A stretch of DNA of 32,000 nucleotides from Cupriavidus necator (GTDB taxonomy: Bacteria; Pseudomonadota; Gammaproteobacteria; Burkholderiales; Burkholderiaceae): contig NZ_CP066019.1 of assembly GCF_016127575.1 (NCBI RefSeq), positions 2,820,001 through 2,852,000 on the forward strand, in the 5' to 3' direction. The position numbers and the translations under genes are program-made. Within the stretch, counting starts at the first letter, position 1; every line of letters begins with the position of its first letter. Of the stretch, positions 1,311 to 24,420 are shown in pieces. The notes beneath the pieces were generated by a model, which made no database searches, was not told the DNA's origin, and saw only the letters and a list, made by a program, of their open reading frames with translations.

Positions 1311-1327
1311 GCGTACCCGTTTCTGCG
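1311..1327 (-). repeat. dispersed copy of the origin 17-mer (GCGTACCCGTTTCTGCG, reverse complement of CGCAGAAACGGGTACGC)
   Basis: Exact match to the iteron consensus. Lies in the zwf-edd divergent intergenic region. Confidence 0.85.
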
Positions 1328-1399
1328 TGTGCTGCGCAGTGGATCGTGCGGTACGCGGCAAAGTGCGCTAGGCTGAAAGCTCCCCCGCAGGAGAACCCC

Positions 1400-3252
<1,853 letters not shown>

Positions 3253-3256
<4 letters not shown>

Positions 3257-4191
3257 CCCAGGTGCTGCACCGGCCGGCGCGACGCCGCGCCGGCCGGGTG
3301 CGGCGCGCTCGCCGATGGCGCGCTGTCGGCCACCTTCACCGCACCCGGCACCGAGGCGGCGCCCGGCACGTGCAATTCCTGGATCGGCACCGCCAGCTTG
3401 CTGCCGGCTTGTTCCAGCACATGCTTGATGCGCTCGTAGAACGCGAAACGCACGTTCCAGTAGTCGTCATTCGAGGTCCAGTAGCGCACGTTCAGCGTGA
3501 TGCCCTGCTGCGTGTAGTTGACCACCATGGTCTCGGGCCTGGGTTCGGCCAGCAGGCGCGGCTCGCGCGCGAGCATCGCGCGCAGCGCTTCCAGGCTGCG
3601 CTGCACATCGCTGTCGAAGGTCACCGTGGCCTCGATGTCTGCGCGCCGCGTGGCGTTCTCGCTGTAGTTGGTGATGGCGCTTCCCCACAGCTTGCCGTTT
3701 GGCACGCGCAGGCAGACGCCATCGAAGGTGGTCAGCTCGGTCATGAAGAGGCCGGTCTCGCGCACGGTGCCGGCCACCCCCTGCGCATCGATGTACTGGC
3801 CGACGCGGAACGGCCGCAGCAGCACCAGCATGATGCCGGCGGCAATGTTCTGCAGCGTGCCCTGCAGTGCCAGCCCGATGGCCAGTCCCGCGGCGCCCAG
3901 CATGGCGATGATGCTGGCGGTCTGCACCCCGAACTGCGACAGCACCAGCACGATGGTCAGCACGCGCACCATCCATTGCAGCGCGTTGGCCAGCAGCGGG
4001 CGCATGGTCTCGTCCACGTGCGTGCCGCTGAGCGCGCGCCGGGCGCCCCGGGCCACGCGGGCCGACAGCCACCAGCCGGCCATCAGGATCAGGATGGCTG
4101 CCAGGCAGTTCATTCCCTGGTTGATGGCGAACTGGACCAGGTAAGTCCAGCCCGCCTCCAGCTTGTTCGCATCGATGAAGTTCAGGTCCAT
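3253..4191 (-). CDS. MscS-family mechanosensitive ion channel
   Basis: Track ORF 3253..4314, trimmed to [10 protein letters not shown]. It has TM helices followed by [24 protein letters not shown] and [18 protein letters not shown], which are characteristic of MscS-like channels. It converges on edd with overlapping stop codons. Confidence 0.85.
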
Positions 4192-4237
4192 GGGAGCGGC
4201 TCCGTTTGCGGTTGTTATGGAGGAGACAGGCGGTGCT

Positions 4238-4254
4238 GCGTACCCGTTTCTGCG
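4238..4254 (-). repeat. dispersed copy of the origin 17-mer
   Basis: GCGTACCCGTTTCTGCG, an exact consensus match. Lies 47 bp upstream of the MscS-family start. Confidence 0.85.
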
Positions 4255-4551
4255 TGCGGCAGCGGGCTGCCAGATCGCCCCCAGGCGCCTGGCGGGGAAT
4301 TTCCCGCTTGACAACTTGCCGCACGTTGCCAGCGCGATGTCGGACGATCACCGACAATGCCGGCACGGCAATACAGTGAAGGGGACAAGCAAGGCGGGAT
4401 TTGGTTTCCGGCGATTGCGTCACGCGGTTGCGTGCAGGCGCGCCAGCCCTTGTGCAATCAAGGCTGGCGGCGGATCAGAAAAATCCGAGCGAGGGAGGAA
4501 CCAGGGGCAGCCAGGCCAGGCTCGGCGCGGCGGGCCGGCTGTGCGGCACAA

Positions 4552-4567
4552 CTTTCAGCGACGAAAG
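4552..4567. promoter_or_regulatory. degenerate copy of the parS-like palindrome (CTTTCAGCGACGAAAG)
   Basis: 14 of 16 positions match CTTTCAGCGCTGAAAG at 21084-21099. It sits inside a longer inverted repeat, CAACTTTC-N6-GAAAGTTG. Confidence 0.3.
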
Positions 4568-4614
4568 TTGGCGAATAGGGGTCGGCGATACCGCCATCCG
4601 GGCATCGACAGGGA

Positions 4615-4631
4615 CGCAGAAACGGGTACGC
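4615..4631 (+). repeat. dispersed copy of the origin 17-mer
   Basis: CGCAGAAACGGGTACGC, exact. Flanked directly by CAGGGA and TCCCTG. Lies 3' of the MFS gene. Confidence 0.85.
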
Positions 4632-4650
4632 TCCCTGCCCCGGCAATGGG

Positions 4651-5898
4651 TCAGGCCGGATGATCGTGCAGCCGGTCGCGCGCGGCCAGCGCAGGAAAGA
4701 GCCGCATCCACAGCGCCACCACCAGCAGCGTGCCGACGCCGCCCAGGATCACCGCGCCCACCGGGCCCAGCAATGCCGCGGTGACGCCGGACTCGAACTC
4801 GCCCAACTGGTTCGAGGCGCCGATAAACACCGAATTGACCGCGCCCACGCGCCCGCGCATGTCGTCCGGGGTCTCGAGCTGGACCAGCGTGGAGCGCACC
4901 ACCACGCTGATCATGTCCGAGGCGCCCAGCACCACCAGCGCCACCATCGACAACGGCAGCCAGGTCGATACGCCGAACACCACGGTAGCCACCCCGAACA
5001 GCGCCACCGCGCCGAACATGATGCGCCCGGCGCGCCGGTTCAGCGGATGGCGCGCCAGCCACAGCGCCATTACCAGCGCGCCGACTGCCGGCGACGAACG
5101 CAGCAGCCCCAGGCCCCACGGCCCGGTGTGCAGGATGTCGCGCGCGTAGATCGGCAGCAGCGCCACGGCGCCGCCCAGCAGCACCGCGAACAGGTCCAGC
5201 GAAATCGCGCCCAGCAGCACCGGGCGGCTGCGGATATAGGCAAACCCGGCAAACACGGTGCGCACGCTGACCGGCGCGGTCAGGCGCTGCGCGGCCTGGC
5301 GCAGCGTGATGCCGCTGACCAGCACGGCGGCAATGGCAAAGAGCGTGGCACTCAGCCCGTAGACCACGCCCGGCCCGGCCACGTAGGCAAAGCCACCAAT
5401 TGCCGGGCCGATGATGATGGCGGCCTGCCCGGCGGAGCTGGCCAGCGCCACCGCGCGCGGCAGCTGGCGCGGCGTCACCACGCTGGGCAGCAGCGCCTGC
5501 AGCGTGGGGGTCTCGAACGCGCGCGTGGCGCCGATCAGCGCGACGAAGACAAAGATGTGATGGCTGTCGATCCAGCCGCTCAGGCTGGCCACGGCCATGC
5601 CGGCGGCCAGCAGCGCCTCGATCGCCTGACAGGTGCGCACGATGCGGCGCCGGTCGAAGCGGTCGGCCACGTGCCCCGACATCAGGATCAGCACCACCGA
5701 CGGCAGGAACTGCACCAGCCCGACCATGCCGAGCATCAGCGGGTCGCGGGTCAGGTCGTACATCTGCCAGCCGACCGCCACCGTAAAGATCTGGTAGCCA
5801 ATCGTGGTGCACAGGCGCGCGAACCAGTAACGGCGGAAAACGGCGTCGCGGAAGACGCTGTCCGGCGCGGCGGCCTGGACGGTGGCTGGGGAAGACAT
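4651..5898 (-). CDS. MFS transporter (EntS/MFS_3-like, possible siderophore exporter)
   Basis: Track ORF 4651..6033. A 12-TM-like hydrophobic pattern with FRRYWFARLCTTIGYQ and HVADRFDRRRI motifs recalls the enterobactin-exporter-type MFS family. The start was placed at MSSPATVQ (5898). No clear SD is present, so the start is uncertain. Confidence 0.78.
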   Translation of the reverse strand: MSSPATVQAAAPDSVFRDAVFRRYWFARLCTTIGYQIFTVAVGWQMYDLTRDPLMLGMVGLVQFLPSVVLILMSGHVADRFDRRRIVRTCQAIEALLAAGMAVASLSGWIDSHHIFVFVALIGATRAFETPTLQALLPSVVTPRQLPRAVALASSAGQAAIIIGPAIGGFAYVAGPGVVYGLSATLFAIAAVLVSGITLRQAAQRLTAPVSVRTVFAGFAYIRSRPVLLGAISLDLFAVLLGGAVALLPIYARDILHTGPWGLGLLRSSPAVGALVMALWLARHPLNRRAGRIMFGAVALFGVATVVFGVSTWLPLSMVALVVLGASDMISVVVRSTLVQLETPDDMRGRVGAVNSVFIGASNQLGEFESGVTAALLGPVGAVILGGVGTLLVVALWMRLFPALAARDRLHDHPA

Positions 5899-6150
5899 GG
5901 ATGCGGGAGGGAGGCGGAGATGGCTGCGCACCGCCCAGCGCCGCCGTGCCGTTGAGGACGCCACGACAGCCATTGCAGTGCACAAAGGCAAGATTCTAAA
6001 GCGCCTGCTGAATACCTGCATACAGATGCCCACACGCGCACACCTATCGAAAAAAATATTAGTAGTTCACCTCTTTTAGGTGTCCGGACGTCTGCACATT
6101 GATGCACATAAACCACAATCCCGGGCGGCGGGTGCTGGCCGTTTCGCTTC

Positions 6151-6175
6151 TGAGAATCACTCGCATTTATAATCT
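6151..6175. promoter_or_regulatory. candidate Fur box
   Basis: TGAGAATCACTCGCATTTATAATCT lies in the AT-richer gap between the MFS gene and the TonB-dependent receptor. It matches about 10/19 positions of the GATAATGATAATCATTATC consensus. Confidence 0.3.
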
Positions 6176-6249
6176 CGGCCCATTGGCGCGGCCGCCCACG
6201 ACGTCCCTCCCCTTGGCTTGCGGAACGCGCTGCTTCTCAGGAATCCATC

Positions 6250-8406
6250 TTGCAGCCCGCTTTCCGCCTTTCCGGGGGTGCCATCGGCGCCGCCCTGCTG
6301 TTCGCCCAGCTTGCCGCCCTGCCGGCCCACGCCGCTGATCCCGCGCCTGCCGCCAACCCCGAAGCCACGCTGAACGCCGTCACCGTGGTCGGCAACTGGC
6401 TGGAGAACGCCAACGAGGCCAAGGTGCTGGAGCATCCCGGCGCGCGTACCATCGTCGACCGCGAGACCTTCCAGGAAGCCGGCGCCAACAACGTGCGCGA
6501 GGTGCTGCGTCGCATCCCCGGCGTGCAGGTGCAGGAGAACAACGGCACCGGCGGCAGCGATGTCTCGCTCAACGTGGGCGTGCGCGGGCTGACCTCGCGC
6601 CTGTCGCCGCGCTCGACCATCCTGATGGACGGCGTGCCGCTGGCAGTGGCGCCCTACGGCCAGCCGCAGCTGTCGATGGCGCCGTTGTCGCTGGGCAACC
6701 TGGAAACCATCGACGTGGTGCGCGGCGCCGGCTCGGTGCGCTACGGCCCGCAGAACGTGGGCGGCATCATCAACTTCGTGACGCGCCCGATACCGAAGAC
6801 CTTCGTGGCCGATGCGTCGGTGTCGACCGACATCTACAGCCACGGCGGCAGCGTCAAGACCAACCCGACCGCATTCATCGGCGGCACCAACGACAACGGC
6901 CTGGGCGGCGCGCTGCTGTACTCGGGCATCCATGGCAACGGCTATCGCGAGAGCAACGACCACGTCAATATCGACGACCTGATGCTCAAGGGCACGTACC
7001 GGATCTCGAAGACCGATGAACTGAGCGCGGCCTTCCACTACTACGAGGGCAGGGCCGGCATGCCCGGCGGCCTGACTTCGGCCCAGTATGCGGCCGACCC
7101 GTTCCAGTCGGTGCGGCCCTACGACAATTTCGACGGCCGCCGCAGCGACTTCAGCCTGAAGTACAGCCACAACGACAATAACCGCAAGTTCGAGGTGCTG
7201 ACGTACTACACCGACAGCTTCCGCGGCAGCAACATCGAGCAGCAAGGCACCGGCACGCAGGCCAACCTGCGCCGCCTGACCGCGGCCCCGCGCAATTACC
7301 ACACGTTCGCGATCGAGCCACGCTACTCGCAGCTGTTCCGCGGCGAGAGCATGAGCCACGAGGTCAGCGTCGGCTACCGCTTCCTGCGCGAAGCCAGCGA
7401 CGAAAAGGCATCGCGCACGCTGTTCTACACCCCGGGCACCATCGATCCGACCACGCTGCGCTCGCCGGTGTACCAGTCGCGCACGGGCGGCACCACCGCC
7501 AATGCGGTCTATATCGACGACACCATCAACGTCGGCAGCTGGACCATCACGCCGGGCCTGCGCTATGAGTTCATCCGATCGTATGTGACCGACAACTTCA
7601 CCGGCGCTCGCAACGACGTCTCGTCCAACGAGCCGTTGCCGTCGCTGGCGGTGATGTACCACGTCAGCGACCAGTGGAAGCTGTTCGCCAACGCCGGCGT
7701 TTCGTTCGGCCCGCTGCAGTACTTCCAGATCGCGCAGACCACCAACGGCCTGACGCCCGAGAAGGCCAAGACGTATGAGGTCGGCACGCACTTCAACGCC
7801 AACGGCTGGGGCGGCGAGCTGACGCTGTTCAATATCGATTTCGACGACGAGCTGCAACTGCGCGGCGGCACCGGCGGCGCGCCGGACGCGTGGACCAACC
7901 TCGGCGCCACCACCCACCGTGGCGTGGAATCGTCGCTGCGCTATGACTTCGGCGCGCTCGACAAGTCGCTGGCCGGCCTGTCGGCATACGCCACCTACAC
8001 CTTCACCGAAGCCACCTACAACCAGGGCAACTTCGCCGGGCGCGACCTGCCGTTCTATTCGCGCCACGTGGCCACCGTAGGCATGCGCTATGCGCGCAAC
8101 CGCTGGGCACTCAATGTCGATGGCTTCGCGCAGTCGAAACAGCGTTCGCCGGGCGATCCGAGCACGTCGACCAACTACCAGACGGCGGAAAGCGCAAACG
8201 GTGCGCTGGGCGATATCCCGGGTTATGCGCTGCTGAACATGCGGCTGGGCTATGACTTCGGCAAGTCGGCGCAGAATCTGAAGGTGGCGGTTGGGGTGAA
8301 GAACGTGTTCGACAAGCGCTATTTCACGCGCTCGACCGACAACAATGCGGGCAAGTATGTGGGGATGCCGCGGACGTTCTATATCCAGGCGTCACTGGCA
8401 TATTGA
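6250..8406 (+). CDS. TonB-dependent (siderophore-type) outer-membrane receptor
   Basis: TTG start as given in the track. The signal peptide ends LAALPAHA/AD. Plug-domain motifs include ETIDVVRGAGSVRYGPQNVGGIINFVTR. The product is a long beta-barrel ending in the aromatic terminus FYIQASLAY. Confidence 0.9.
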   Translation: MQPAFRLSGGAIGAALLFAQLAALPAHAADPAPAANPEATLNAVTVVGNWLENANEAKVLEHPGARTIVDRETFQEAGANNVREVLRRIPGVQVQENNGTGGSDVSLNVGVRGLTSRLSPRSTILMDGVPLAVAPYGQPQLSMAPLSLGNLETIDVVRGAGSVRYGPQNVGGIINFVTRPIPKTFVADASVSTDIYSHGGSVKTNPTAFIGGTNDNGLGGALLYSGIHGNGYRESNDHVNIDDLMLKGTYRISKTDELSAAFHYYEGRAGMPGGLTSAQYAADPFQSVRPYDNFDGRRSDFSLKYSHNDNNRKFEVLTYYTDSFRGSNIEQQGTGTQANLRRLTAAPRNYHTFAIEPRYSQLFRGESMSHEVSVGYRFLREASDEKASRTLFYTPGTIDPTTLRSPVYQSRTGGTTANAVYIDDTINVGSWTITPGLRYEFIRSYVTDNFTGARNDVSSNEPLPSLAVMYHVSDQWKLFANAGVSFGPLQYFQIAQTTNGLTPEKAKTYEVGTHFNANGWGGELTLFNIDFDDELQLRGGTGGAPDAWTNLGATTHRGVESSLRYDFGALDKSLAGLSAYATYTFTEATYNQGNFAGRDLPFYSRHVATVGMRYARNRWALNVDGFAQSKQRSPGDPSTSTNYQTAESANGALGDIPGYALLNMRLGYDFGKSAQNLKVAVGVKNVFDKRYFTRSTDNNAGKYVGMPRTFYIQASLAY

Positions 8407-8445
8407 GGCGAAATCAGGCTGAGGGGGTGCTCCCCTCAGGTAGCA

Positions 8446-8478
8446 AAACGGCTCGCAGTTGCGAGCCGTTTTTGCTTT
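8446..8478. terminator. bidirectional rho-independent terminator
   Basis: AAAACGGCTCGC-AGTT-GCGAGCCGTTTT, with an A-run before and a T-run after. Lies between the converging receptor and prfC genes. A second hairpin, CTGAGGGG..CCCCTCAG, is at 8419-8439. Confidence 0.65.
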
Positions 8479-8496
8479 TGCAGCTTTAGTACGCGA

Positions 8497-10098
<1,602 letters not shown>

Positions 10099-10271
10099 GG
10101 CAGCGGAGTTTGACTGGGAAATATTGGATGGCCCGGCGGGCGGCCGGGCCAGCGCCGGCAGCGCCCGCAGGCGATGGCGGGGCCGGGCTCTGCGGGCACG
10201 CGAAGGGAATGGGGCGCTATTTTACCGGTTTTGGGCACCGCTCCGGGTTTGTGGCGCCCAGGTGCGGCAAG

Positions 10272-11345
10272 TTATTCCGCCAGCTTCTCTGCCGGCTTGC
10301 CGCGCAGGCTGCCGAACTGCAGCGCGTACTGACGCGTCAGTTCCGCGCCGAAAAAGAAGATCTGTGCCGAGTAATACACCCATAGCATCAGCGCCACCAC
10401 CGAGCCCGCGGCCCCGTACGAGGAGGCCACGGCGCTGTTGCCCAGGTACAGGCCGATCAGCCGCTTGCCGATCGAGAATAGCAAGGCTGTGATGACCGCG
10501 CCCATGGTGACGTCGCGCCAGGCAATGCGCGCATTGGGCAGCATCTTGAAGATCACCGCGAACAGCGCCGTCACCACGGCAAAAGAAAAGGCGGTGGAAA
10601 GCACATCGGCCACCGGCGCGAACCACGATTGCGTCCACAACTGGCCCCACAGGCGCTCAACCACGGCCAGCGCCGCATTGACGATCAGAGACACCAGCAG
10701 CATGAAGGCCAGCACCAGCACCAGGCTGAATGACAGCAGGCGCGTGCGCAGCAATTGCTGCCAGCCCGCCGTCTCGGGCACCGGCACATGCCAGATGTCG
10801 TCCAGGCTGCTCTTGAGCTCGGCAAAGGCACTCGTGGCGCCCACGAGCAGGATGCCCGTCGCCACCAGCGCCGCCATGCCGCTGCCGCCTGCGCGGTGCG
10901 TAGCCGCCAGGATTTCCTGGATGGCCGTGGCGCCCTGCTCGCCCACCAGGCCTTCAAGCTGCGAGAAAATCTCGCCGCGTGCGGCCTCGGCGCCGAAGAA
11001 CAGGCCGGCGATCGAGATCACCAGCACCAGGATAGGCGCCAGCGAGAACAGCATGTAGAAGGAGAGCGCCGCCCCTTTGCTGGCCGCCCGATGCGCGAAC
11101 CAGGAGTTGATGGCGGCAGCGACCACGCGCAGGGTGCGTGCGCCGGTATGGCGGTCCGGCAGCCAGTGCGGGCGATGCCTGCGGTGATGTGGCGCCGCGC
11201 TGCCGGCGGAAGAGGACTGGTGTTCGGTATTGTCGGTCACGGCCAGGTGCTGGCGCGATGCGCCAGGCGGATCGCGTGTGCGTTGCGCATGCCTTCGGGG
11301 CGCGGTCTGTGCGGCGAAGGCCCGTGCGTTCATCATACTGCGCAT
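10272..11345 (-). CDS. YihY/BrkB family inner-membrane protein
   Basis: Track ORF 10272..11438. Motifs GAALSFYMLFSLAPILVL and YGAAGSVVALMLWVYYSAQIFFFGAE are typical of YihY/BrkB (formerly RNase BN). The start is uncertain: MRSMMN at 11345, or 11336/11333. Confidence 0.8.
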   Translation of the reverse strand: MRSMMNARAFAAQTAPRRHAQRTRDPPGASRQHLAVTDNTEHQSSSAGSAAPHHRRHRPHWLPDRHTGARTLRVVAAAINSWFAHRAASKGAALSFYMLFSLAPILVLVISIAGLFFGAEAARGEIFSQLEGLVGEQGATAIQEILAATHRAGGSGMAALVATGILLVGATSAFAELKSSLDDIWHVPVPETAGWQQLLRTRLLSFSLVLVLAFMLLVSLIVNAALAVVERLWGQLWTQSWFAPVADVLSTAFSFAVVTALFAVIFKMLPNARIAWRDVTMGAVITALLFSIGKRLIGLYLGNSAVASSYGAAGSVVALMLWVYYSAQIFFFGAELTRQYALQFGSLRGKPAEKLAE

Positions 11346-11447
11346 CGCGCGCTGCCCCAAGCCGGCGCAGGGAGGCAACCTGCTACAGTAGGACCAGGCA
11401 CACCTGCCGGCGCAACCCGTGCCTGCGCGCCGGCGCAAGGAGGCACC

Positions 11448-11642
11448 GTGACCTGCAACCTCCGCACGCGCCCTGCGGCCGTGCTACTGATCATCGGCAT
11501 GCTGGGCTGCGCCGGCTGCGAACGCAGCCAGCCGGGCCCCAAGCCCATTTCCGGCGCGGCGGCCAGCGCCACCCCGGCCGCGCCCGCCACGCTCAATCCT
11601 CCCGACACACCAGCCGCGCCGGCATCGGGGCAACCACGCTGA
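11448..11642 (+). CDS. small putative lipoprotein (64 aa)
   Basis: GTG start preceded by AAGGAGG 4 nt upstream. The N-terminus VTCNLRTRPAAVLLIIGMLGCAGC has a signal-peptide plus lipobox-like pattern, followed by a Pro/Ala-rich tail. Confidence 0.45.
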   Translation: MTCNLRTRPAAVLLIIGMLGCAGCERSQPGPKPISGAAASATPAAPATLNPPDTPAAPASGQPR

Positions 11643-11666
11643 CGGCACCGCAGGACACTGACCGGG

Positions 11667-11683
11667 GCGTACCTGTTTCTGCG
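11667..11683 (-). repeat. dispersed copy of the origin 17-mer (CAGG variant)
   Basis: GCGTACCTGTTTCTGCG, identical to the variant at 19162-19178. Lies 25 bp after the small lipoprotein stop. Confidence 0.85.
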
Positions 11684-14896: not shown

Positions 14897-15317
14897 GATA
14901 ATCCCCGTTGAACAACATCCCCCGGCACTACACGTCTGCGGTTACCACTTGTCAGTCTTTGAACTGGTTTTTTGTCTGCGTGGCGCGCGTGTTTCCCGCA
15001 CGCTCCCGGATGGTGGCTATGCCGCCTTGTTGACGGTCTGGACCGAAATGTCCACCGACCGGCGAACGGCGCTCAAGCGCTCTCGGTTGGCTCCGGCATC
15101 CTGCCGCATGCACCGGAGTCAAGAAGGGGCGCCTTGCCGCGCCCCTCTTTGCCACGTCTATAGTTCAGTGCATTTGGGGCACTTTGTCCAGCCCCGAGTG
15201 GGTGACTTACAGCCAATCTCATACTTTGGTATGAGGCCGCGCGCACACTGGCCCCCGGCCTGCCACCGCCACCTTTTCGGACACATTACGAGCAGTCGAT
15301 GTCTGCATCCATGCTAC

Positions 15318-15334
15318 GCAGAAACGGGTACGCT
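15318..15334 (+). repeat. dispersed copy of the origin 17-mer
   Basis: CGCAGAAACGGGTACGC, exact. Intergenic. Confidence 0.85.
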
Positions 15335-15417
15335 TTGACCCCCGAACGGGTGATGGCAGCACCGTCGCCGCGGGTGCCGCAAGCCGTGCCGCATGCCCGA
15401 GGGGTGGCGGACTGTCA

Positions 15418-15434
15418 CGCAGAAACAGGTACGC
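15418..15434 (+). repeat. dispersed copy of the origin 17-mer (CAGG variant)
   Basis: CGCAGAAACAGGTACGC. Intergenic. Confidence 0.85.
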
Positions 15435-15461
15435 CCGGCCGGTGGACCCGCTCGCGCGGCA

Positions 15462-15478
15462 CGCAGAAACGGGTACGG
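15462..15478 (+). repeat. dispersed copy of the origin 17-mer
   Basis: CGCAGAAACGGGTACGG. Intergenic, 44 bp after the previous copy. Confidence 0.85.
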
Positions 15479-17249: not shown

Positions 17250-17399
17250 GCCGCCTAGATTCAAGCGACGAGGCAACAGTTCATTCGTTAGCCACCGTCT
17301 GGTACTTCGGTTGTCCATGGTGTCCTTTCCTTGAGTTCCCCGTGTCGGATGACGTTTTCGTCATGCGATGTTTTTTGTCCTTTTTCTGGAAAGCAAATC

Positions 17400-17603
17400 A
17401 TGCAAACCGGTATCGTCAAGTGGTTCAACGACGCCAAGGGCTTCGGCTTCATCAAGCCGGACGCGGGTGGTGACGACCTCTTCGCCCATTTCTCGGAAAT
17501 CCGCGCCGACGGCTTCAAGTCGCTGCAGGAAAACCAGCGCGTGCAGTTCGAAGTCAAGAATGGCCCGAAGGGCCTGCAGGCCGCGAACATCACCCCGCTG
17601 TAA
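17400..17603 (+). CDS. CspA-family cold-shock protein (67 aa)
   Basis: [34 protein letters not shown]... carries the RNP1 (KGFGFI) and RNP2-like (LFAHF) motifs. Confidence 0.93.
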
Positions 17604-17645
17604 GCATTGACTGCCGGCGCGCCCCGCGCGCGCCGAACAGCGTAG

Positions 17646-17675
17646 AACCCCGCCCATGGCGGGGTTTTTTGTTTT
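17646..17675 (+). terminator. rho-independent terminator
   Basis: AACCCCGCC-CAT-GGCGGGGTT followed by TTTTGTTTT. Confidence 0.75.
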
Positions 17676-18120
17676 CAGGCGCGGATAGCGCGATTGGCGG
17701 TGCTGTCTGCGCCACCTTCATCACATCCCGGCCCCCGCCGCTCCCCGCCTGCCCCGGTCATGCAGACCGCCAGGCGCTCCGCTCCAGCCCCCGCATGCCC
17801 ATGCCGCCGCCAGCCGGCACGCCTGGCCTTGCGCGGCGCACTTTCCCGCTCACCATCCAGCCTTGCGCTCCACGCAGAATCGGGTACGCCTGCTGCACCG
17901 CACGAGGTCAGGCACGGCCCGTGAGCCTCGCAGAAATGGGTACGGTCTGTCCTGGCAGGCCTGCTTGCGCTGGGCAGCGGGTACGCAGAAACAGGTACGC
18001 CCTGCGGCACTTTGGTCTTTCCAGGAGCCTTCTGGCACGCAGAAGCGGGTACGCCCAAAAATTTTTTTTCGAATTCGATTCGGCCGATGGCAGCGGTTCT
18101 CCGGCCCGCATTCCTCCTAC

Positions 18121-18129
18121 ATATCCACA
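18121..18129 (+). promoter_or_regulatory. DnaA-box-like site ATATCCACA
   Basis: Matches 8/9 positions of TTATCCACA. Confidence 0.35.
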
Positions 18130-18685
18130 AAGCCGGGCCAGGCCGACGACGCAGAAACGGGTACGGCTAATGTTGCAACGCAATAACCATCGGAAGCCCT
18201 GAGGCTGCCGGCACCCCACGCAGAAACAGGTACGCCCACGGGCACAGGCGCACCACTCGACGCCACGCAGAAACGGGTACGCCAACGACATGCAAGGCGG
18301 TTGGCTACCCGGCTGAGCTTTGGCATCCATGATCTGTCTGCGCAGAAACAGGTACGGCGCGTAGCGCCGCGAGTTTCCCGCGTATACGTTGAGTGTGAGT
18401 GCTAGCTTTTTCTGCAACTCTCATGTAGAATGGAAACTTGGTGAAAGTTCCGTCAGAACAGCACCATAGGTCTGCGCAGAAACGGGTACGCATGACCCGG
18501 AAGAGCCCGGCAGGAGGTACGCAGAAACGGGTACGCTTCGCGGCGCACCAGGGTGCCAGGGTCGGCACGCAGAAATGGGTACGCCGCAGAAACAGGTACG
18601 CTGGGGCAGCACGGCAGCGGCCTTTCAGGCCAGCGCAGAAACGGGTACGCCTGACGTGCAAAGCGCCCGTCAGCAGCCCGGCAAG

Positions 18686-18735
18686 TGAACCAGTTTCTGC
18701 GGGGATAACCGGGCTCTGGCCGTACTTTCTGCGGG
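18686..18735 (-). repeat. two degenerate inverted iteron copies
   Basis: GAACCAGTTTCTGCGG (18687-18702) and CCGTACTTTCTGCGGG (18720-18735) are reverse-orientation relatives of the 17-mer. They flank a DnaA-box-like GGGGATAA. Confidence 0.5.
18700..18708 (-). promoter_or_regulatory. DnaA-box-like site TTATCCCCG (minus strand)
   Basis: Matches 7/9 positions of TTATCCACA. The same 9-mer occurs in the opposite orientation at 18843-18851. Confidence 0.3.
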
Positions 18736-18815
18736 AAAGAGGCACTGGAACCCTCGCAAGCCGCGTATACCCGGCGCTCGCTCGCAGAAACGGGTACGGT
18801 TTGAGGAGTGGCCGC

Positions 18816-18824
18816 TGTGGAAAA
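18816..18824 (-). promoter_or_regulatory. DnaA-box-like site TTTTCCACA (minus strand)
   Basis: Matches 8/9 positions of TTATCCACA. A weaker GGTTCCACA follows at 18828-18836. Confidence 0.35.
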
Positions 18825-18842
18825 GGCTGTGGAACCTGCAAG

Positions 18843-18851
18843 TTATCCCCG
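18843..18851 (+). promoter_or_regulatory. DnaA-box-like site TTATCCCCG
   Basis: Matches 7/9 positions. It overlaps the first class II iteron by 2 bp. Confidence 0.3.
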
Positions 18852-18955
18852 CAGAAACCAGTTCGCCCCACCCGCAGATACAGGTTCGGCTTGCCGCAGA
18901 TACGGGTTCGGCCCTTCGCAGAATCGAGTACGGTTGCCCGCAGAATCGGGTTCGG
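18850..18955 (+). repeat. class II iterons: 5 direct copies phased at 22-23 bp (CGCAGA(A/T)A(C/T)..G(G/A)(G/T)T(T/A)CG(G/C))
   Basis: Starts at 18850, 18873, 18895, 18917 and 18939. This variant carries GTTCGG where class I has GTACGC. The ~2 helical-turn phasing is typical of plasmid ori iterons. Confidence 0.85.
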
Positions 18956-19060
18956 TGGGGTTGGTTTTTCCCTTACGAATCAAGGCGCTGAACTTCACGT
19001 ATACGGTTTACAAGTAGTTAACCCGTATCGGTATCGTTTACTGGTAGTGGATGGCTGGCG
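18956..19060. other. AT-richer candidate DNA-unwinding element
   Basis: A visibly lower-GC stretch directly after the phased iterons. It holds two GTTTACNNGTAGT 13-mers (19006-19018 and 19036-19048) and CGTATAC/CGTATCG repeats. Confidence 0.4.
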
Positions 19061-19161
19061 AACCGTGGACAACCCTGACGGGTTGCCCACCGTCCACCAC
19101 CATGCGACCAGTCGTGAGATTCCCAGCCGGCAGAAAACAGGGCGAGCAAGGCAAGGGCTTT

Positions 19162-19178
19162 GCGTACCTGTTTCTGCG
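19162..19178 (-). promoter_or_regulatory. inverted iteron copy, candidate repA operator
   Basis: GCGTACCTGTTTCTGCG is the only full-length copy in reverse orientation near the array. It abuts a possible repA promoter: GTGACA at 19178-19183, 17 nt, TACAAA at 19201-19206. Confidence 0.55.
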
Positions 19179-19231
19179 TGACAACCTTTGCGGCTTCGAG
19201 TACAAAGGCGGGTAATCCGAAGCACGCCAAT

Positions 19232-20326
19232 ATGCCCATCAAACGCTCCCCGGCCACCACGGGGGATCGAAGCGTCCTCGACCTGGACGCCGAACCCTCC
19301 CGCATCATTGTTCCCGGCAACGAGAACAACCTGGTTCCGTCCGAGAAATTCCAGCGTCTGTTCGACGAAGCGCAGGCCATGGAGCGTGAAGACGCCTGGC
19401 AAAGCGGTGAAGTCGGCTTCCTGAGCCGCGCCAGCGTCCAGGTAACGCTGCCCTACCGCGCGCCCAAGGGCGCGCCGCCGGTATGGACCCGCACCAGCGG
19501 CAATATCTCGCTGATGATCCAGCCTGGCTACTTCACGCAGCAACGTTCCGAACGTGCCACCAACGGCCGCCAGAAGCTGGTGTCCGAGACCGTCTCGCTG
19601 GGTTACCCCTATGGCTCCTATCCGCGGCTGATGCTGGCCTGGATCGGCAAGGAGATCATGGCGAAGAAAAAGCGCGGTGAATTCACCGGCACGGTAGAGG
19701 ACCGGCGCATTTCGCTGGGCAATTCGCTGTCCGAGTTCATGTACAACCTCGGCATTCCGATGGCCACCGGCGGCAAGCGCGGCACGATGACGCTGGTACG
19801 CCAGCAGATGATCCGCCTGTTCTCGGCGACCATCGCCATCGTGCAAAACAAGTCGACGCCGAGCCAGAACCAGAACCCCAACCACGAGCCACTGTCGATC
19901 GATCGGGTGGGCTACCTGCTGGCCGATCAACTGTCGACCTGGTGGGACCCCATGCAGCCTGGTCAGGGGTCCATGTTCGAGAGCTTCGTGGTGCTGTCCG
20001 AGCCGTTCTTCAACGAACTGGTCAACCGCCCCGTACCGGTCGACATGCGCGCGCTCAAGGCGCTGAAACAGTCGCCGTTCGCGCTGGACGTGTATTCGTG
20101 GCTGACCTACCGCTTCTTCACCATCCAGCGCCGCACGGAAATCCCGTGGGAAGCGCTGCAGATGCAGTTCGGCACCGAGACCGAAAGCGAGCGCAAGTTC
20201 CGTGCGCTGTTCCGCAAGGCCCTGAAGGATGTGCTGGTGGTGTATCCCGGTGCCAAGGTCGATGCGGATTCGTCCAAGGCGCTGATCCTGCAGCCTTCCC
20301 GGACCAGCGTGCGCAAGCTGGGCTGA
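19232..20326 (+). CDS. repA: plasmid-type replication initiator RepA (RepA_C-like)
   Basis: Track ORF 19160..20326, trimmed to MPIKRSPATT; upstream of that ATG the ORF merely translates the iteron. LGYPYGSYPRLMLAWIGKEI, ISLGNSLSEFMYNLGI and PFALDVYSWLTYR match my recollection of Burkholderiaceae secondary-replicon/megaplasmid RepA proteins. The position next to iterons and parAB supports the call. Confidence 0.88.
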   Translation: MPIKRSPATTGDRSVLDLDAEPSRIIVPGNENNLVPSEKFQRLFDEAQAMEREDAWQSGEVGFLSRASVQVTLPYRAPKGAPPVWTRTSGNISLMIQPGYFTQQRSERATNGRQKLVSETVSLGYPYGSYPRLMLAWIGKEIMAKKKRGEFTGTVEDRRISLGNSLSEFMYNLGIPMATGGKRGTMTLVRQQMIRLFSATIAIVQNKSTPSQNQNPNHEPLSIDRVGYLLADQLSTWWDPMQPGQGSMFESFVVLSEPFFNELVNRPVPVDMRALKALKQSPFALDVYSWLTYRFFTIQRRTEIPWEALQMQFGTETESERKFRALFRKALKDVLVVYPGAKVDADSSKALILQPSRTSVRKLG

Positions 20327-20480: not shown

Positions 20481-20528
20481 TTGCCCGCCGCGGACGGATC
20501 CGCAACGGGCGGGGTCAGCCGAGGCTGG

Positions 20529-20732
20529 TCAGGCCGGCTTGATTGCCGAAGCCTGCAGGCCCTTCGGGCCTTGCTTGACTTCAAACGTCACGCGCTGCCC
20601 ATCCTTCAGGGTCTTGAAGCCCGAGCCCTGGATTTCCGAGAAGTGCGCGAACAGGTCTGCACCACCGTCGTCCGGGGTAATGAAGCCAAAGCCCTTGGTC
20701 TCGTTGAACCACTTGACCGTACCGGTTGCCAT
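20529..20732 (-). CDS. CspA-family cold-shock protein (67 aa), second paralogue
   Basis: Track ORF trimmed to [34 protein letters not shown]... By eye it is about 70 percent identical to the 17400 product. Confidence 0.93.
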
Positions 20733-20857
20733 AGGAATTTCCTTTTCGAAGCAAGTTCTTGTACACAACGCAAACAACCGTTCAAGCACGTTGAGTTCTC
20801 GTAGATACCGAACGGAAGCCGACGAGGTTGACACGACTTGACTCGACTGTAGCGCGC

Positions 20858-21083: not shown

Positions 21084-21099
21084 CTTTCAGCGCTGAAAG
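21084..21099. promoter_or_regulatory. perfect 16-bp palindrome CTTTCAGCGCTGAAAG, candidate parS/par operator
   Basis: A perfect inverted repeat lying between the putative promoter and the parA RBS. Confidence 0.55.
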
Positions 21100-21109
21100 A
21101 GAGGTCGCA

Positions 21110-21769
21110 GTGCCAGCCAAAATCATCACAGTCTTTAACCAGAAAGGCGGTTGCGGCAAGACTACGGTCAGCATGCACCTTGCTGGCACGCTTGGCCTGC
21201 GCGGCGCGCGCTCGATGCTGGTCGACATGGACGAGCAAGGCACCGCCACTCGCTGGGCGGCGCAGGCCAGCGACGAGCGGCCGTTCCCGGCTTCCGTGAT
21301 TGGCCTGGCGCCCTCGGGCGGCGCCATGCACCGCGAAGTCCGCAAATTCGTCCAGGATTATGACTACATCGTCGTGGATTGCCCGCCGGCGGTGCATTCG
21401 GCAGCGCCCTCGAGCGCGCTGCTGATTTCGGACCTTGCCATTATTCCGGTGGTGCCTTCTCCGCCGGATCTGTGGGCGGCGGTAGCGGCCAAGACGCTGG
21501 CGCAGCACGCCCAAGTCCAGAATGAGTCCTTGCTGATCCGTGTGATGGCCAATATGGTCCAGCGCCGCGTCTCGATCGCGCGCCAGGCCATTGAAATCCT
21601 TGGCGACGACGGCGACGTACCGCTTTTGAATTCGATGATCGGGTCGCGCTCGGCATTCCGGGAATGCCAGGCGATCGGCTGCACCGTGCACGGCGTTGCC
21701 GGCGCACGCGAGGCGGTGCAGGAGGTCGACATGATGGTCGACGAAATACTGTCTTTGATTGAGCACTAG
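21110..21769 (+). CDS. parA: ParA partition ATPase
   Basis: GTG start with GAAAGAGAGG upstream. The product carries the deviant Walker A in VFNQKGGCGKTT and the motif IVVDCPP. Length is 219 aa. Confidence 0.93.
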   Translation: MPAKIITVFNQKGGCGKTTVSMHLAGTLGLRGARSMLVDMDEQGTATRWAAQASDERPFPASVIGLAPSGGAMHREVRKFVQDYDYIVVDCPPAVHSAAPSSALLISDLAIIPVVPSPPDLWAAVAAKTLAQHAQVQNESLLIRVMANMVQRRVSIARQAIEILGDDGDVPLLNSMIGSRSAFRECQAIGCTVHGVAGAREAVQEVDMMVDEILSLIEH

Positions 21770-21771
21770 GT

Positions 21772-22785
21772 ATGGCTACCAAACTGAAGAGCCTCAAGGC
21801 TGGCATGCTGGCCGGCATGGCGGCCGAAAAGACCCGCAACGATACGCTGGACCGCTTCGCTCGCGCGGAAGCGGCCATTTCCCAGCATCCGAATGGATTG
21901 CTGCAGGGCAGGGGAGCCGATGGCGCGCCCGTTTTCAGCGCTGAAAGTCTTGGCGAAGCCGCCGCGGGCCGGCAGCTGATCAGGATTCCGCTGGAGCAAC
22001 TGCACGACAATCCTCTCAACGCGCGGCGCCTCTACGATCCCGCCGTGGTGCAGGAGCGGGCGGCATCCATTGCCACGCACGGCCAGAAGACCCCCGGCCT
22101 GGCCGCGCCCGATCCGGCGCGCCCCGGCCATTACATCCTGATCGACGGTCATTACCGCAAGCGAGCTCTGGCGTCTGCCGGCAAGCTCGAGATGGAATGT
22201 TTTGTCGAAAACGACCTGAGCGACCTGGACTTCTACCGGCTGTCGTTCATGCTCAACGAGCAGCGCTCGGACCAGTCAGCGCTGGACAATGCGATCGCCT
22301 GGCGCCAGTTGCTGGACGAAGGCAAGGTCCAGAAGGAAGAGGAAATCTGCGAGCTGACCGGCATGTCGGCCGGCACCGTGAACAAGACGCTGGCGCTGCT
22401 GCGCCTGCCCGAGTCCGTGCTGGGCGTGATGCGCGAGCGCCCGAGCGCGATCGGCATCGCCGCGGGCTATGAGCTGACGCTGTACTGCAAGCTGGCGGGC
22501 GAGGAGCGCACGCGCGAACTGGCGGCGCGCATCATCAATGACGGCCTGTCGAGCCGCGAGGTTGAAGCCATCCGCAAGCACGCGCAGGAAGGCAAGGCGC
22601 GCAAGGTCAAGGAAATCAGCCGGCAATACAAGATCCGGACCGACAGCGGCCAGTTGCTGGGCACCATCAAGGAATGGGACTCGGGACGCGTGATGCTGGA
22701 CGTGCAGCTGAGCGACCGCAGTGCCCGCGAGGCGCTGGTCGAGGCCCTGAAGGCCCGCTTCGGGCTGGACAACACGCTGCTCTGA
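21772..22785 (+). CDS. parB: ParB partition protein
   Basis: Starts 2 nt after the parA stop. It carries the ParB-box region IPLEQLHDNPLNARR and GHYILIDGHYRKRA, and an HTH reading EEICELTGMSAGTVNKTLALLRLP. Confidence 0.93.
   Translation: MATKLKSLKAGMLAGMAAEKTRNDTLDRFARAEAAISQHPNGLLQGRGADGAPVFSAESLGEAAAGRQLIRIPLEQLHDNPLNARRLYDPAVVQERAASIATHGQKTPGLAAPDPARPGHYILIDGHYRKRALASAGKLEMECFVENDLSDLDFYRLSFMLNEQRSDQSALDNAIAWRQLLDEGKVQKEEEICELTGMSAGTVNKTLALLRLPESVLGVMRERPSAIGIAAGYELTLYCKLAGEERTRELAARIINDGLSSREVEAIRKHAQEGKARKVKEISRQYKIRTDSGQLLGTIKEWDSGRVMLDVQLSDRSAREALVEALKARFGLDNTLL
21933..21946. promoter_or_regulatory. second copy of the palindrome core TTTCAGCGCTGAAA, candidate parS
   Basis: A perfect 14-bp palindrome inside the 5' part of parB (codons PVFSAES). 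Confidence 0.5.
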
Positions 22786-22836: not shown

Positions 22837-24420
22837 TCAAGCCAGCAGGTCGCGCGGCGAGCGCGCGCCAAACTCCGGATCACAGGTCTTGCGGTAGCGC
22901 TCAAGCATGCTGGACAGCAGGGCATGCAGGCCACGCACCGAGTAGCCGGCCAGCGGCAATGCCGCCAGCTTGCGCTGCGCGCGCCGGGTCGGCGGCGCGG
23001 CCGGTGGACCGATCAGCGAGGCGTCTTCTGTGCCCGCACCGTCCCACTGGAGGTTGCGGTCACGCCAATGCCGGGCCAGCGCGTGCTGCGTGGCCAGGCC
23101 AAAGCCGGGCGTTCCGTCTGGCACAATGCTTTCCACACCGTCTTCCGGAACCCGCGCAGGCTGCTGCATCGGCGCCAGCGAACGCCGCGTGACCGAGGTC
23201 AGCCGGTCCAGGCTGAGCCGGTGTTCCCGCAACAGCAGGATTGCCGCATGGGCGGTCCGGTAGCGCTGGCCATCGTCGTCGCCGCCCCGGTGTTCCAGCC
23301 ATGACAGGAAGGGAGCCAGGCTGGCCTCGGGAACCTGCAAGGTGTCCGGCCGCGCCGCCTCCGTTGCCGCCGAGGCATCGGTGCCGTCCGGGATCCGGGC
23401 TGGCCAGAGCGCTGTGACCGGGTAGCCGTTGGCATGCATCCAGCGGAACAGGGCGGCCAGCACCCGCATGCTATGCCGCACGCTTGCCGGACTGAGCGGG
23501 CCGGTGAACGGACGCCAGCCGGCCAGGTGGCGCGGTGCCCGCGGTCCGCACCAGCGGCTGCCCGGTTCGGGCTGCGCCAGGAAGCCCAGGTAGGCCCGGC
23601 GGTCGTCCAGATCGAGCTGCGACAGGCCCTTGCGCCGCTCCAGTGCTGCCCATAGCAGCAAGCGCTCCGCCTCCTTGCGGTAGGCCGAGAACGTGCTGCC
23701 GCTGTCGCCGGCGGCATCGCGCAGCCAGGCCTGGACGACGTCGAGGCCCTGACTGTACGGGCAGCTGGCGTCAGCGGCTAACGCGGGCGACGCGGTCATC
23801 CATTCCAGCGGCAACGGCTGGCGCATCCCTGGTCCCAGCCTGCCTCGCTCGAGCAGAGTCCGGTTGCCGACGTGCGCGCCCAGCAGCGGCTTGCCGTCCG
23901 GGTCCCGGAAGGCAGCACGGTTCTCGCTGAGCCAGCGGTTGACGGCCGCGCCGGCAAGCGCGCCAATGCGCGGGACGGCCCGCCACCAGGCGCTGCCGCG
24001 TCGGTTTGCAAGCTCAAAAAGAGAATTAAGGGTCACAATTTCAGCCTTGCGCAAGCGTCGCGCCAAGGCTGGTGCAAACCACAACTCCACGCCGTGCTGG
24101 GGGCGCGGCGCCGCCGTACCCAACCGTTCGAGCTCAGCCAGCGCGTCGACGCGGCGATCCATGCCGCGGTTGGAGCGGCCAGGGCCGGCCAGCAGCAGTT
24201 CGGCCAGGTCCGCCCGTCCGTGCAGGTGCGCGAGCTGGACCATCCGGTCGCGCAGGGCAAGCAGGATCCGCAGCGCAGACTCGGCCCCGGCTTCGTCGTC
24301 ATCGGCTTCGTCGGCCAGGTAGCGGGGCACCACCATGGCCGCCGGCATGCCCTGCACATAGGCGCGTACCGCCGCAAATTCGCTGCGGGTGAGGCTGACC
24401 ATCATCATTCCAGGAATCAT
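22837..24420 (-). CDS. large integrase/tyrosine-recombinase-like protein (527 aa)
   Basis: Single long ORF with good coding appearance. The N-terminal half (TRSEFAAVRAYVQG...VTLNSLFELANRRGSAWWRAVPRIG) and the central FSAYRKEAERLLLWAALERRKGLSQL (SAM-like core-binding flavour) recall the putative phage integrase family that often sits next to parAB on Burkholderiaceae secondary replicons. I could not identify the catalytic R-H-R-Y residues confidently. Confidence 0.6.
   Translation of the reverse strand: MIPGMMMVSLTRSEFAAVRAYVQGMPAAMVVPRYLADEADDDEAGAESALRILLALRDRMVQLAHLHGRADLAELLLAGPGRSNRGMDRRVDALAELERLGTAAPRPQHGVELWFAPALARRLRKAEIVTLNSLFELANRRGSAWWRAVPRIGALAGAAVNRWLSENRAAFRDPDGKPLLGAHVGNRTLLERGRLGPGMRQPLPLEWMTASPALAADASCPYSQGLDVVQAWLRDAAGDSGSTFSAYRKEAERLLLWAALERRKGLSQLDLDDRRAYLGFLAQPEPGSRWCGPRAPRHLAGWRPFTGPLSPASVRHSMRVLAALFRWMHANGYPVTALWPARIPDGTDASAATEAARPDTLQVPEASLAPFLSWLEHRGGDDDGQRYRTAHAAILLLREHRLSLDRLTSVTRRSLAPMQQPARVPEDGVESIVPDGTPGFGLATQHALARHWRDRNLQWDGAGTEDASLIGPPAAPPTRRAQRKLAALPLAGYSVRGLHALLSSMLERYRKTCDPEFGARSPRDLLA

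Follow-up and report, generated by a model that had tools for sequence, protein, structure and literature searches.

The genome of Cupriavidus necator studied here consists of three replicons of 4.05, 2.91 and 0.45 Mb with a GC content of about 66%, and the stretch of DNA that we analysed (the window; 32,000 nucleotides, C2:2820001-2852000) lies on the 2.91-Mb replicon. It spans the replication origin of this 2.9-Mb second chromosome (chromid). A 1.63-kb intergenic region is followed by repA (19232..20326, plus strand), the gene for an initiator with a RepA_C domain, by a csp gene, and by parA (21110-21769, plus strand) and parB (21772-22785, plus strand). Within the intergenic region, a field of 14 direct iterons of consensus quality and without helical phasing (17873..18798, plus strand) stands ahead of five phased iterons of lower quality, and it is this field, and its probable role in the control of chromid replication, with which we are concerned. 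Comparison with named relatives identifies the module as the one that replicates the second chromosome in Cupriavidus and Ralstonia; in Imbroritus primus, the equivalent rep module is carried by a 318-kb plasmid.

Each iteron of the field reads CGCAGAAAYRGGTACG followed by either C or G, a sequence without palindromic symmetry. Twelve of the 14 copies carry CGCAGAAAYRGGTACG exactly, and the remaining two deviate from it at one position (17873, AAT; 18038, AAG). An earlier note, made from the letters of this DNA, had described 14 copies in the same orientation with a tight consensus, spaced at 17 to 149 bp with the first four at 54-56 bp, and our measurements bear this out. The copies start at 17873, 17929, 17984, 18038, 18150, 18219, 18266, 18341, 18475, 18520, 18568, 18585, 18634 and 18783, with start-to-start spacings of 56, 55, 54, 112, 69, 47, 75, 134, 45, 48, 17, 49 and 149 bp, and the whole window contains 26 iteron matches with up to two mismatches, where 0.04 are expected from 100 shuffles. 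The spacing is irregular overall, as had been noted, but part of it (75, 134, 45, 48, 17, 49) is kept across the genus, including the length of the 134-bp gap. Similarly, the 14 copies are all direct, but the same interval additionally holds a degenerate inverted iteron next to GGGGATAAC (18686..18709, minus strand, with the iteron part at 18686-18701; conservation 0.80) and a partial inverted copy at about 18720-18735. The stretches 18686-18709 and 18842-18864 form a 23-nt inverted repeat that is 91% complementary. A 32-bp iteron-bearing unit that follows the 18634 copy in most Cupriavidus relatives is absent here (18634-18660), so that spacings of 49, 32 and 150 in the relatives are replaced by 49 and 149 in this genome.

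The last field iteron is separated by 67 bp from the phased set that the earlier note had called class II, and this set was recovered as described: five copies of CGCAGAWWCNRGTWCG at 18850..18954 (plus strand; starts at 18850, 18873, 18895, 18917 and 18939), 22-23 bp apart. These likely represent the origin core. They depart from the consensus (CGCAGATACRGGTTCG and similar), and the field sites are nearer to it; all direct copies, 14 in the field and five in the core, lie no more than 1.4 kb upstream of repA. A DnaA box, TTTTCCACA, which fits TTWTNCACA, is found at 18816..18824 (minus strand; conservation of the block 0.83), and a conserved DnaA-box-like sequence, TTATCCCCG (18843..18851, plus strand), overlaps the start of the first core iteron. 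On the repA side of the core follows an AT-richer, highly conserved block (18972..19110; conservation 0.72-0.96), a candidate unwinding element in which GTTTACWRGTAGT occurs twice and GTWWAC four times (18999-19041). A single inverted consensus iteron (19163..19178, minus strand), whose end lies 54 bp upstream of the repA start codon, is a candidate operator for autorepression. With repeats located next to rep, an array phased at about 22 bp in the company of DnaA boxes and an AT-rich region, and an inverted iteron in the promoter, the repA-proximal end is, as far as it can be read from its sequence, a classical iteron origin (phased array, DnaA boxes, AT-rich block).

The GTWWAC motif, a conserved methylated motif of R. 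solanacearum (PMC5390034), is rare in this genome (0.074 per kb), and yet four sites are packed into 38 bp of the AT-richer block. Clusters of four sites occur three times in the genome, namely at 18999-19041 of the window, at C1:1593982-1594081 on the main chromosome and at C2:108505-108576, and two of these three fall in the inferred unwinding regions of both chromosomes' origins. Within the window, six of the 10 GTWWAC sites lie in 18382-19041.

Conservation in this region has the pattern expected of binding sites. The upstream regions of 23 Cupriavidus genomes share an overall identity of only 53-66%, and among them conservation is 0.915 for iteron columns, 0.909 for core iterons and 0.369 for the spacers within the field. 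This is a strong footprint, and the gap between the iterons and their spacers rules out neutrality. The comparison across related replicons that had been proposed in the earlier note was carried out on 76 uniformly oriented loci, 53 of the Cupriavidus type, 21 from Ralstonia and two of the Imbroritus type, and it sets an invariant core against a variable field. The operator iteron in the repA promoter is present in all 76 loci. Every Cupriavidus-type locus has a core of five slots, a field with a median of 15 direct iterons (13-16) and either none or one inverted copy. In Ralstonia, the core has five slots in 17 loci and four in the other four, and six to eight direct iterons are mixed with four to nine inverted ones, the typical field possessing seven direct and six inverted copies. 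Both Imbroritus-type loci have a four-slot core with 11 direct copies and one inverted copy in the field. Hence, operator and phased array stay constant, and the field has been rebuilt in each genus in number, spacing and orientation; its single orientation is a Cupriavidus-specific trait. Such independence of orientation and phase is expected of sites that serve titration or handcuffing, and not of a DNA-opening array. As in known control iterons, the spacing and orientation of the field are not bound to one helical face (17-149 bp; six of about 13 field copies inverted in Ralstonia). Field and origin iterons carry one and the same recognition word. The invariance of the core and the plasticity of the field would place the latter outside the minimal origin. 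Small replicons with distant RepA_C proteins carry six to 12 iterons in total, again as a phased set and a second, irregular or inverted set, which makes the two-tier plan a family trait of which the chromid possesses a scaled-up version. The field therefore exceeds what these plasmid relatives have, as the description of it as unusually large implied; the feature is, however, less unusual than that, being a published, genus-wide property of Cupriavidus second chromosomes (PMC2864759; PMC6379261).

The iteron family extends past the field, with exact copies at 1312, 4239, 4615, 11668, 15317, 15418, 15462 and 19163 of the window. With up to two mismatches, the 2.91-Mb replicon carries 38 copies, 37 of which fall in the interval from -38 to +130 kb around the origin; about 18 of the copies in this range are additional, conserved, intergenic iterons. 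An unbiased k-mer enrichment likewise returned the iteron as the dominant origin-specific word, and no copy with up to one mismatch is present on the main chromosome. All seven dispersed copies of the window are intergenic, as are most of those outside it, and they recur in other Cupriavidus species with matching offsets and strands. A satellite trio of direct iterons (15317..15477, plus strand) lies 3.8 kb upstream of repA and is a trio or a quartet in relatives. Further to the left, single iterons are positioned upstream of an IlvD-like gene (1312..1327, minus strand; with syntenic copies in relatives), upstream of a MscS-like gene (4239..4254, minus strand), at 4615..4630 (plus strand) and upstream of a BrkB-like gene (11668..11683, minus strand). 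Six of the seven distal dispersed iterons on the left side of the origin (-24.6 to -7.5 kb; window 1312-11683 and C2:2814615-2818306) have the minus orientation, a pattern that is repeated in other Cupriavidus species. Ralstonia possesses a similar cloud of iterons, mainly on the opposite side of repA. The lone far copy of the chromid (C2:1398090, one mismatch) is located in an open reading frame almost opposite the origin (about 15 kb off the antipode) and close to the GC-skew terminus at about 1.36 Mb, and may be there by chance. On the 453-kb replicon, two exact iterons and one with two mismatches were found (C3:227687, 229235, 361356), one of them intergenic upstream of a H-NS-like gene and one in a helicase/methylase reading frame, and our inspection of their surroundings for a candidate replication locus found no rep or par genes near them. 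Other Cupriavidus genomes have one to five exact iterons on further replicons.

The protein expected to read these sites, RepA, matches Pfam RepA_C (PF04796) with an E-value of 1.9e-32 and 113.4 bits (cutoff 26). This was the only family returned by the Pfam scan; Rep_3 (PF01051), to which RepE, pi and the RepA of pPS10 belong, was not matched. A phmmer search against the chain sequences of the Protein Data Bank (PDB) gave nothing, and NCBIfam holds no model for this protein. We built an AlphaFold2 model from 50 homologues (predicted local distance difference test, 80.7; predicted template-modelling (TM) score, 0.79), and its top match in Foldseek is to domains 2-3 of RctB from V. cholerae (E-value 4.6e-4), followed by many RepE54-iteron complexes (probability 0.97-1.00; TM-score of about 0.6 on the target) and by a complex of Rep with a DNA unwinding element. 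The model thus predicts a tandem winged-helix initiator akin to RepE and RctB, and the likeness of RepA to Rep_3 initiators, as judged from the same model, is one of fold only. Most likely, RepA binds each 16-17-bp iteron through both arms, CGCAG and GGTACG. The centres of these arms are about 10.5 bp apart, one helical turn, a bipartite design that fits the predicted tandem winged-helix architecture.

The two arms also mark a domain of the main chromosome. Iteron matches with three mismatches are non-randomly distributed there, and they led us to a cluster of 28 copies of CGCWG-N5-GGTACG, that is, both iteron arms at the spacing of the iteron around a GC-rich centre, at C1:1513452-1830377. 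The cluster is confined to 320 kb, starts inside dnaA and spans the inferred origin of the main chromosome (oriC1). The CGCAG version of the motif has 22 copies on this chromosome, and 21 of them lie within 1.513-1.830 Mb; the chance of placing at least 21 of 22 in 8.6% of the chromosome is 9e-22. Spacers of N0-N11 other than N5 gave between zero and seven unclustered matches, the reversed order of the arms was unclustered, and so were the single-base variants, with the exception of CGCTG (7 of 11 in the domain). The same A/T exchange (position 4, 1-based) is tolerated in the chromid iterons of relatives, and also in the iteron consensus of strain NH9 (PMC6379261). We rejected composition or a single arm as the source of the cluster, as only the N5 spacer clusters and single-base variants other than CGCTG do not. 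Most of the sites fall within genes. A peptide-coding word was likewise discarded, since the sites occupy all three codon phases and both gene strands and encode unrelated peptides. Outside the arms, the 28 sites favour Y at position 8 (p = 9e-5), a base other than C at position 9 (p = 1.7e-4) and S at position 16 (p = 1.3e-5), with positions numbered from 0; these preferences are common to the 28 sites and the iteron, and the AAA centre of the latter is absent from the former.

The first site of the cluster lies in dnaA (1.512-1.514 Mb). At fine scale, GC skew reaches its minimum at 1.582 Mb, and the sole GTWWAC cluster of this chromosome falls together with clusters of DnaA boxes at 1.5927-1.5942 Mb; on these three grounds, oriC1 is probably near 1.593 Mb, and the sites would then span -80 to +237 kb. 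The cluster is kept in two further Cupriavidus genomes, with 19 sites in 360 kb ending in dnaA (G003) and with 16 sites in about 370 kb (G019), and it is looser in Ralstonia. It is nearly absent from Imbroritus, whose version of the chromid replicon is no more than the 318-kb plasmid: of six main-chromosome copies there, only three are near the origin end of the record. Six relatives without this RepA have one to four matches, not above the reversed-pattern control. At C1:1635566-1635596, a perfect DnaA box, TTATCCACA (minus strand), is found 6 bp from a CGCAG-N5-GGTACG site; this arrangement echoes the junction of DnaA box and iteron at 18843-18865 in the chromid core.

The sequence logic shared by cluster and iteron, together with a co-occurrence that is phylogenetically confounded, provides the link of these 28 sites to RepA. 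It is possible, although we would stop short of calling it probable, that they are low-affinity RepA sites that couple initiation or origin positioning of the chromid to the replication of the main chromosome, in the manner of a distributed, crtS-like timer. If this were true, it would also explain the broad contact between the chromid origin and the main chromosome reported in a 2026 chromosome conformation (Hi-C) study of C. necator N-1, where contacts of the Chr2 origin extend over much of Chr1 and replication of both chromosomes terminates synchronously (PMC13342612). According to the same study, it is not known which timers couple the chromosomes of bacteria other than Vibrio and Agrobacterium. 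We found no earlier report of the main-chromosome cluster in our literature search. To our minds, it matters more than the field itself, because it offers a specific set of sites for the question of how a secondary chromosome is timed against the main one.

Collectively, these data lend themselves to a regulatory model in which the 14-iteron field probably is an auxiliary regulatory set that acts as a brake on initiation through titration of RepA and handcuffing and so limits the chromid to a single round of replication per cell cycle. RepA monomers would bind the iterons. Initiation would most likely take place at the repA-proximal module of DnaA boxes, five phased iterons and AT-rich block: once the weak phased core (18850-18954) is filled with RepA, and with the help of DnaA, the AT-rich block (18972-19050) would open. 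Through the inverted iteron at 19163, RepA would repress its own promoter. The 14 strong, unphased sites of the field would soak up RepA and, by RepA-RepA contacts, would pair with core iterons of their own or of the sister origin. Both activities would raise the RepA threshold for firing and would block re-initiation after the region has been duplicated, and the approximately 18 dispersed iterons (-38 to +130 kb) would extend the titration in a datA-like fashion. The stronger sites of the field and the weaker ones of the core fit the idea of high-affinity sinks set against a low-affinity trigger. We infer RepA binding, the identity of the opening module and the negative sign of the field effect from these arrangements; if the field behaves like P1 incA, F incC or ori2-inc of V. 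cholerae, it would be dispensable for initiation and would lower copy number. The proposal of the earlier note that the field looks more like a control region than like the origin core thus agrees with the fixed core and operator and the plastic field as far as the split itself is concerned, and the control function through titration and handcuffing is one that we infer by analogy.

Some observations weigh against so simple a brake. In V. cholerae, ori2-inc iterons both restrain initiation and relieve its inhibition, and the term may therefore oversimplify matters. The spacings conserved across the genus (75, 134, 45, 48, 17, 49) would not be needed by a pure sink, and a defined higher-order complex, which could be a stimulatory one, is possible. 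Furthermore, the last field iteron, being 67 bp away from the core, could nucleate RepA loading there. These points lead to the alternative that the field is a positive and possibly essential part of the origin, a high-affinity platform that feeds RepA to the weak phased iterons, either cooperatively or by looping. A model for this exists in oriC, where high-affinity DnaA boxes nucleate the filling of low-affinity sites. The greater strength of the field sites and the short distance between the last of them and the core would suit such a platform, as would the conserved length of part of the spacing and of the 134-bp gap with its conserved block, and the DnaA-box-like sites in the field and at its edge. 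A fixed loading geometry is, however, hard to reconcile with the Ralstonia field, which is half inverted and re-spaced next to an unchanged core; plasmid relatives manage with six to 12 sites, and the known analogues, P1 incA, F incC and V. cholerae ori2-inc, are net negative. We therefore regard a loading platform as unlikely, albeit as the most serious competitor of the proposed brake.

More doubtful still is the notion that the field and the dispersed sites chiefly organise the chromosome, so that a hub built by RepA would position or pair the chromid origin, including its contacts with the main chromosome, and the dosing of initiation would be secondary. The spread of sites across about 170 kb around the origin is in keeping with it, and so are the arm-sharing motif in the origin-proximal domain of the main chromosome and the Hi-C data for C. 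necator N-1, in which ori2 touches a large part of Chr1 (PMC13342612), although the text of that report leaves the part of Chr1 in contact unspecified. Against it stands the use of the same motif in the phased core and in the operator of the repA promoter, which ties it to initiation. Moreover, ParAB, encoded beside repA, is a system apart and has a palindromic parS candidate to itself. This candidate is the 16-bp palindrome CTTTCAGCGCTGAAAG, unrelated to the iteron, at 21084..21099 just upstream of parA; a second exact copy of its core lies in the 5' part of parB (21933..21946). It was found via k-mer enrichment, as our census of palindromes was swamped by GC-rich ones, and judged from its sequence and position it likely is parS. 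A degenerate version with two mismatches, CTTTCAGCGACGAAAG, occurs at 4553-4566, about 60 bp from the iteron at 4615. The iteron itself was rejected as parS or centromere, since it is non-palindromic and a distinct palindrome is present at parAB.

It is highly improbable that another protein than RepA, such as ParB or a nucleoid protein of the host, binds the iterons, or that they reflect a neutral expansion of repeats. Their dispersed, origin-proximal spread resembles that of parS superficially, but the iteron lacks the symmetry of the palindrome flanking parAB, its word also builds the 22-bp-phased array next to the AT-rich block as well as the inverted iteron of the repA promoter, and the motif co-occurs with this RepA in three genera. 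Neutral expansion is ruled out by the conservation values (0.915 vs 0.369). The overlapping reading frames belong to no Pfam family, and the region is matched by no RNA family.

Several further features of the locus deserve mention. A DnaA-box-like sequence with one mismatch, ATATCCACA, can be read within the field at 18121..18129 (plus strand), and it corresponds to the box described at roughly -1080 for C. metallidurans CH34 (PMC2864759). The 134-bp gap contains a conserved block (18382..18437, plus strand) composed of GTATAC, GAGTGTGAGYRCTAGCTTTT and a -10-like TAGAAT, which reads TATAAT in close relatives and points toward the origin. Judging from its sequence, this block may drive transcription into the control iterons; a scan of 17300-19400 for sigma-70 promoters gave no matches, this block included. 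Terminator-like matches within the field were dismissed as artefacts, their "T-run" being the TTTCTG of the iteron itself. The five long open reading frames of the 1.6-kb intergenic region belong to no Pfam family, and an Rfam scan of the region had its sole matches in elements resembling the cspA leader at both flanking csp genes. A hidden gene or a known RNA was accordingly rejected: neither Pfam nor Rfam supports one, and conservation follows binding sites, not codons. The two CspA-like genes face inward and flank the ori-repA module (17400-17603, plus strand; about 20518-20733, minus strand), and their leaders resemble the cspA thermoregulator RNA (RF01766; 56 bits, E-value of about 1e-12), with scores that do not reach the gathering score of 78. 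Directly downstream of parB, a 527-amino-acid reading frame with a DUF3701 "phage integrase" domain is located on the minus strand (22837-24420).

The field as such is not new, as it has already been published for the second chromosomes of Cupriavidus. For C. metallidurans CH34, at least 12 repeats of 17 nt, CGCAGAA(A/T)(C/T)(A/G)GGTACG(C/T), were described upstream of repA together with three DnaA boxes (Janssen et al., 2010, PMC2864759), and 20 iteron-like repeats were reported for C. necator NH9 in a paper that also states that H16 has the identical system (Moriuchi et al., 2019, PMC6379261). The "RepA-binding" repeats of these two reports are the same element as our field. Both papers list the repeats only; they contain neither a split into core and field nor a clade-wide comparison, dispersed copies, the main-chromosome motif or a functional test, and our literature search found no functional study of the Cupriavidus repeats. 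What the present analysis makes of the field is a clean natural example of a plasmid-type iteron origin that has been enlarged so as to keep a replicon of 2.9 Mb at a single copy, and the invariant five-slot core and operator next to a plastic field provide a testable map for the engineering of C. necator replicons and vectors.

Among plasmids, P1 (incC/incA) and mini-F (ori2 with incB/incC) combine phased origin iterons with an irregular cluster that controls copy number by titration and handcuffing, and their initiators repress their own genes through inverted repeats. The chromid shares with them the phased origin iterons, the second, irregular cluster and the inverted repeat at rep, and the RepE54-iteron complex is a strong structural match of the RepA model. 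It differs in the position of the control cluster, which lies on the origin-distal side upstream of rep and not downstream as in P1, in the number of sites (14-17 vs nine in P1 and five in F), in the size of the replicon (2.9 Mb at a chromosome-like copy number), and in the membership of its initiator in RepA_C and not in Rep_3. The dispersed iterons bring to mind datA of E. coli, as initiator sites near the origin would double early in the replication cycle and thereby lower the level of free initiator (reviewed in PMC6090056). However, datA forms one cluster, which acts together with IHF and stimulates the hydrolysis of DnaA-ATP, whereas about 18 separate intergenic sites without a known nucleotide switch are found here.

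The closest dissected system is Chr2 of V. cholerae, with ori2-min, ori2-inc, a 29-mer operator, a remote 74-kb locus carrying five iterons, and crtS (PMC6090056). Like the Cupriavidus chromid, it has four tiers: a phased initiating array, regulatory sites next to it, an operator within the promoter of the initiator gene, and further sites at a distance of tens of kb. Although domains 2-3 of RctB are the best structural match of RepA, the two proteins are only about 10% identical, and RepA is devoid of the extra domains of RctB. No counterpart of the V. cholerae 39-mer was recognised here. Both origins contain a cluster of a methylation motif, GATC in V. cholerae and GTWWAC in Cupriavidus. Regulatory iterons number 14 here as compared to five in V. 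cholerae, the dispersed ones are also more numerous, and the single 150-bp crtS element of V. cholerae has its possible equivalent in 28 short candidate sites scattered around oriC1 of the C. necator main chromosome.

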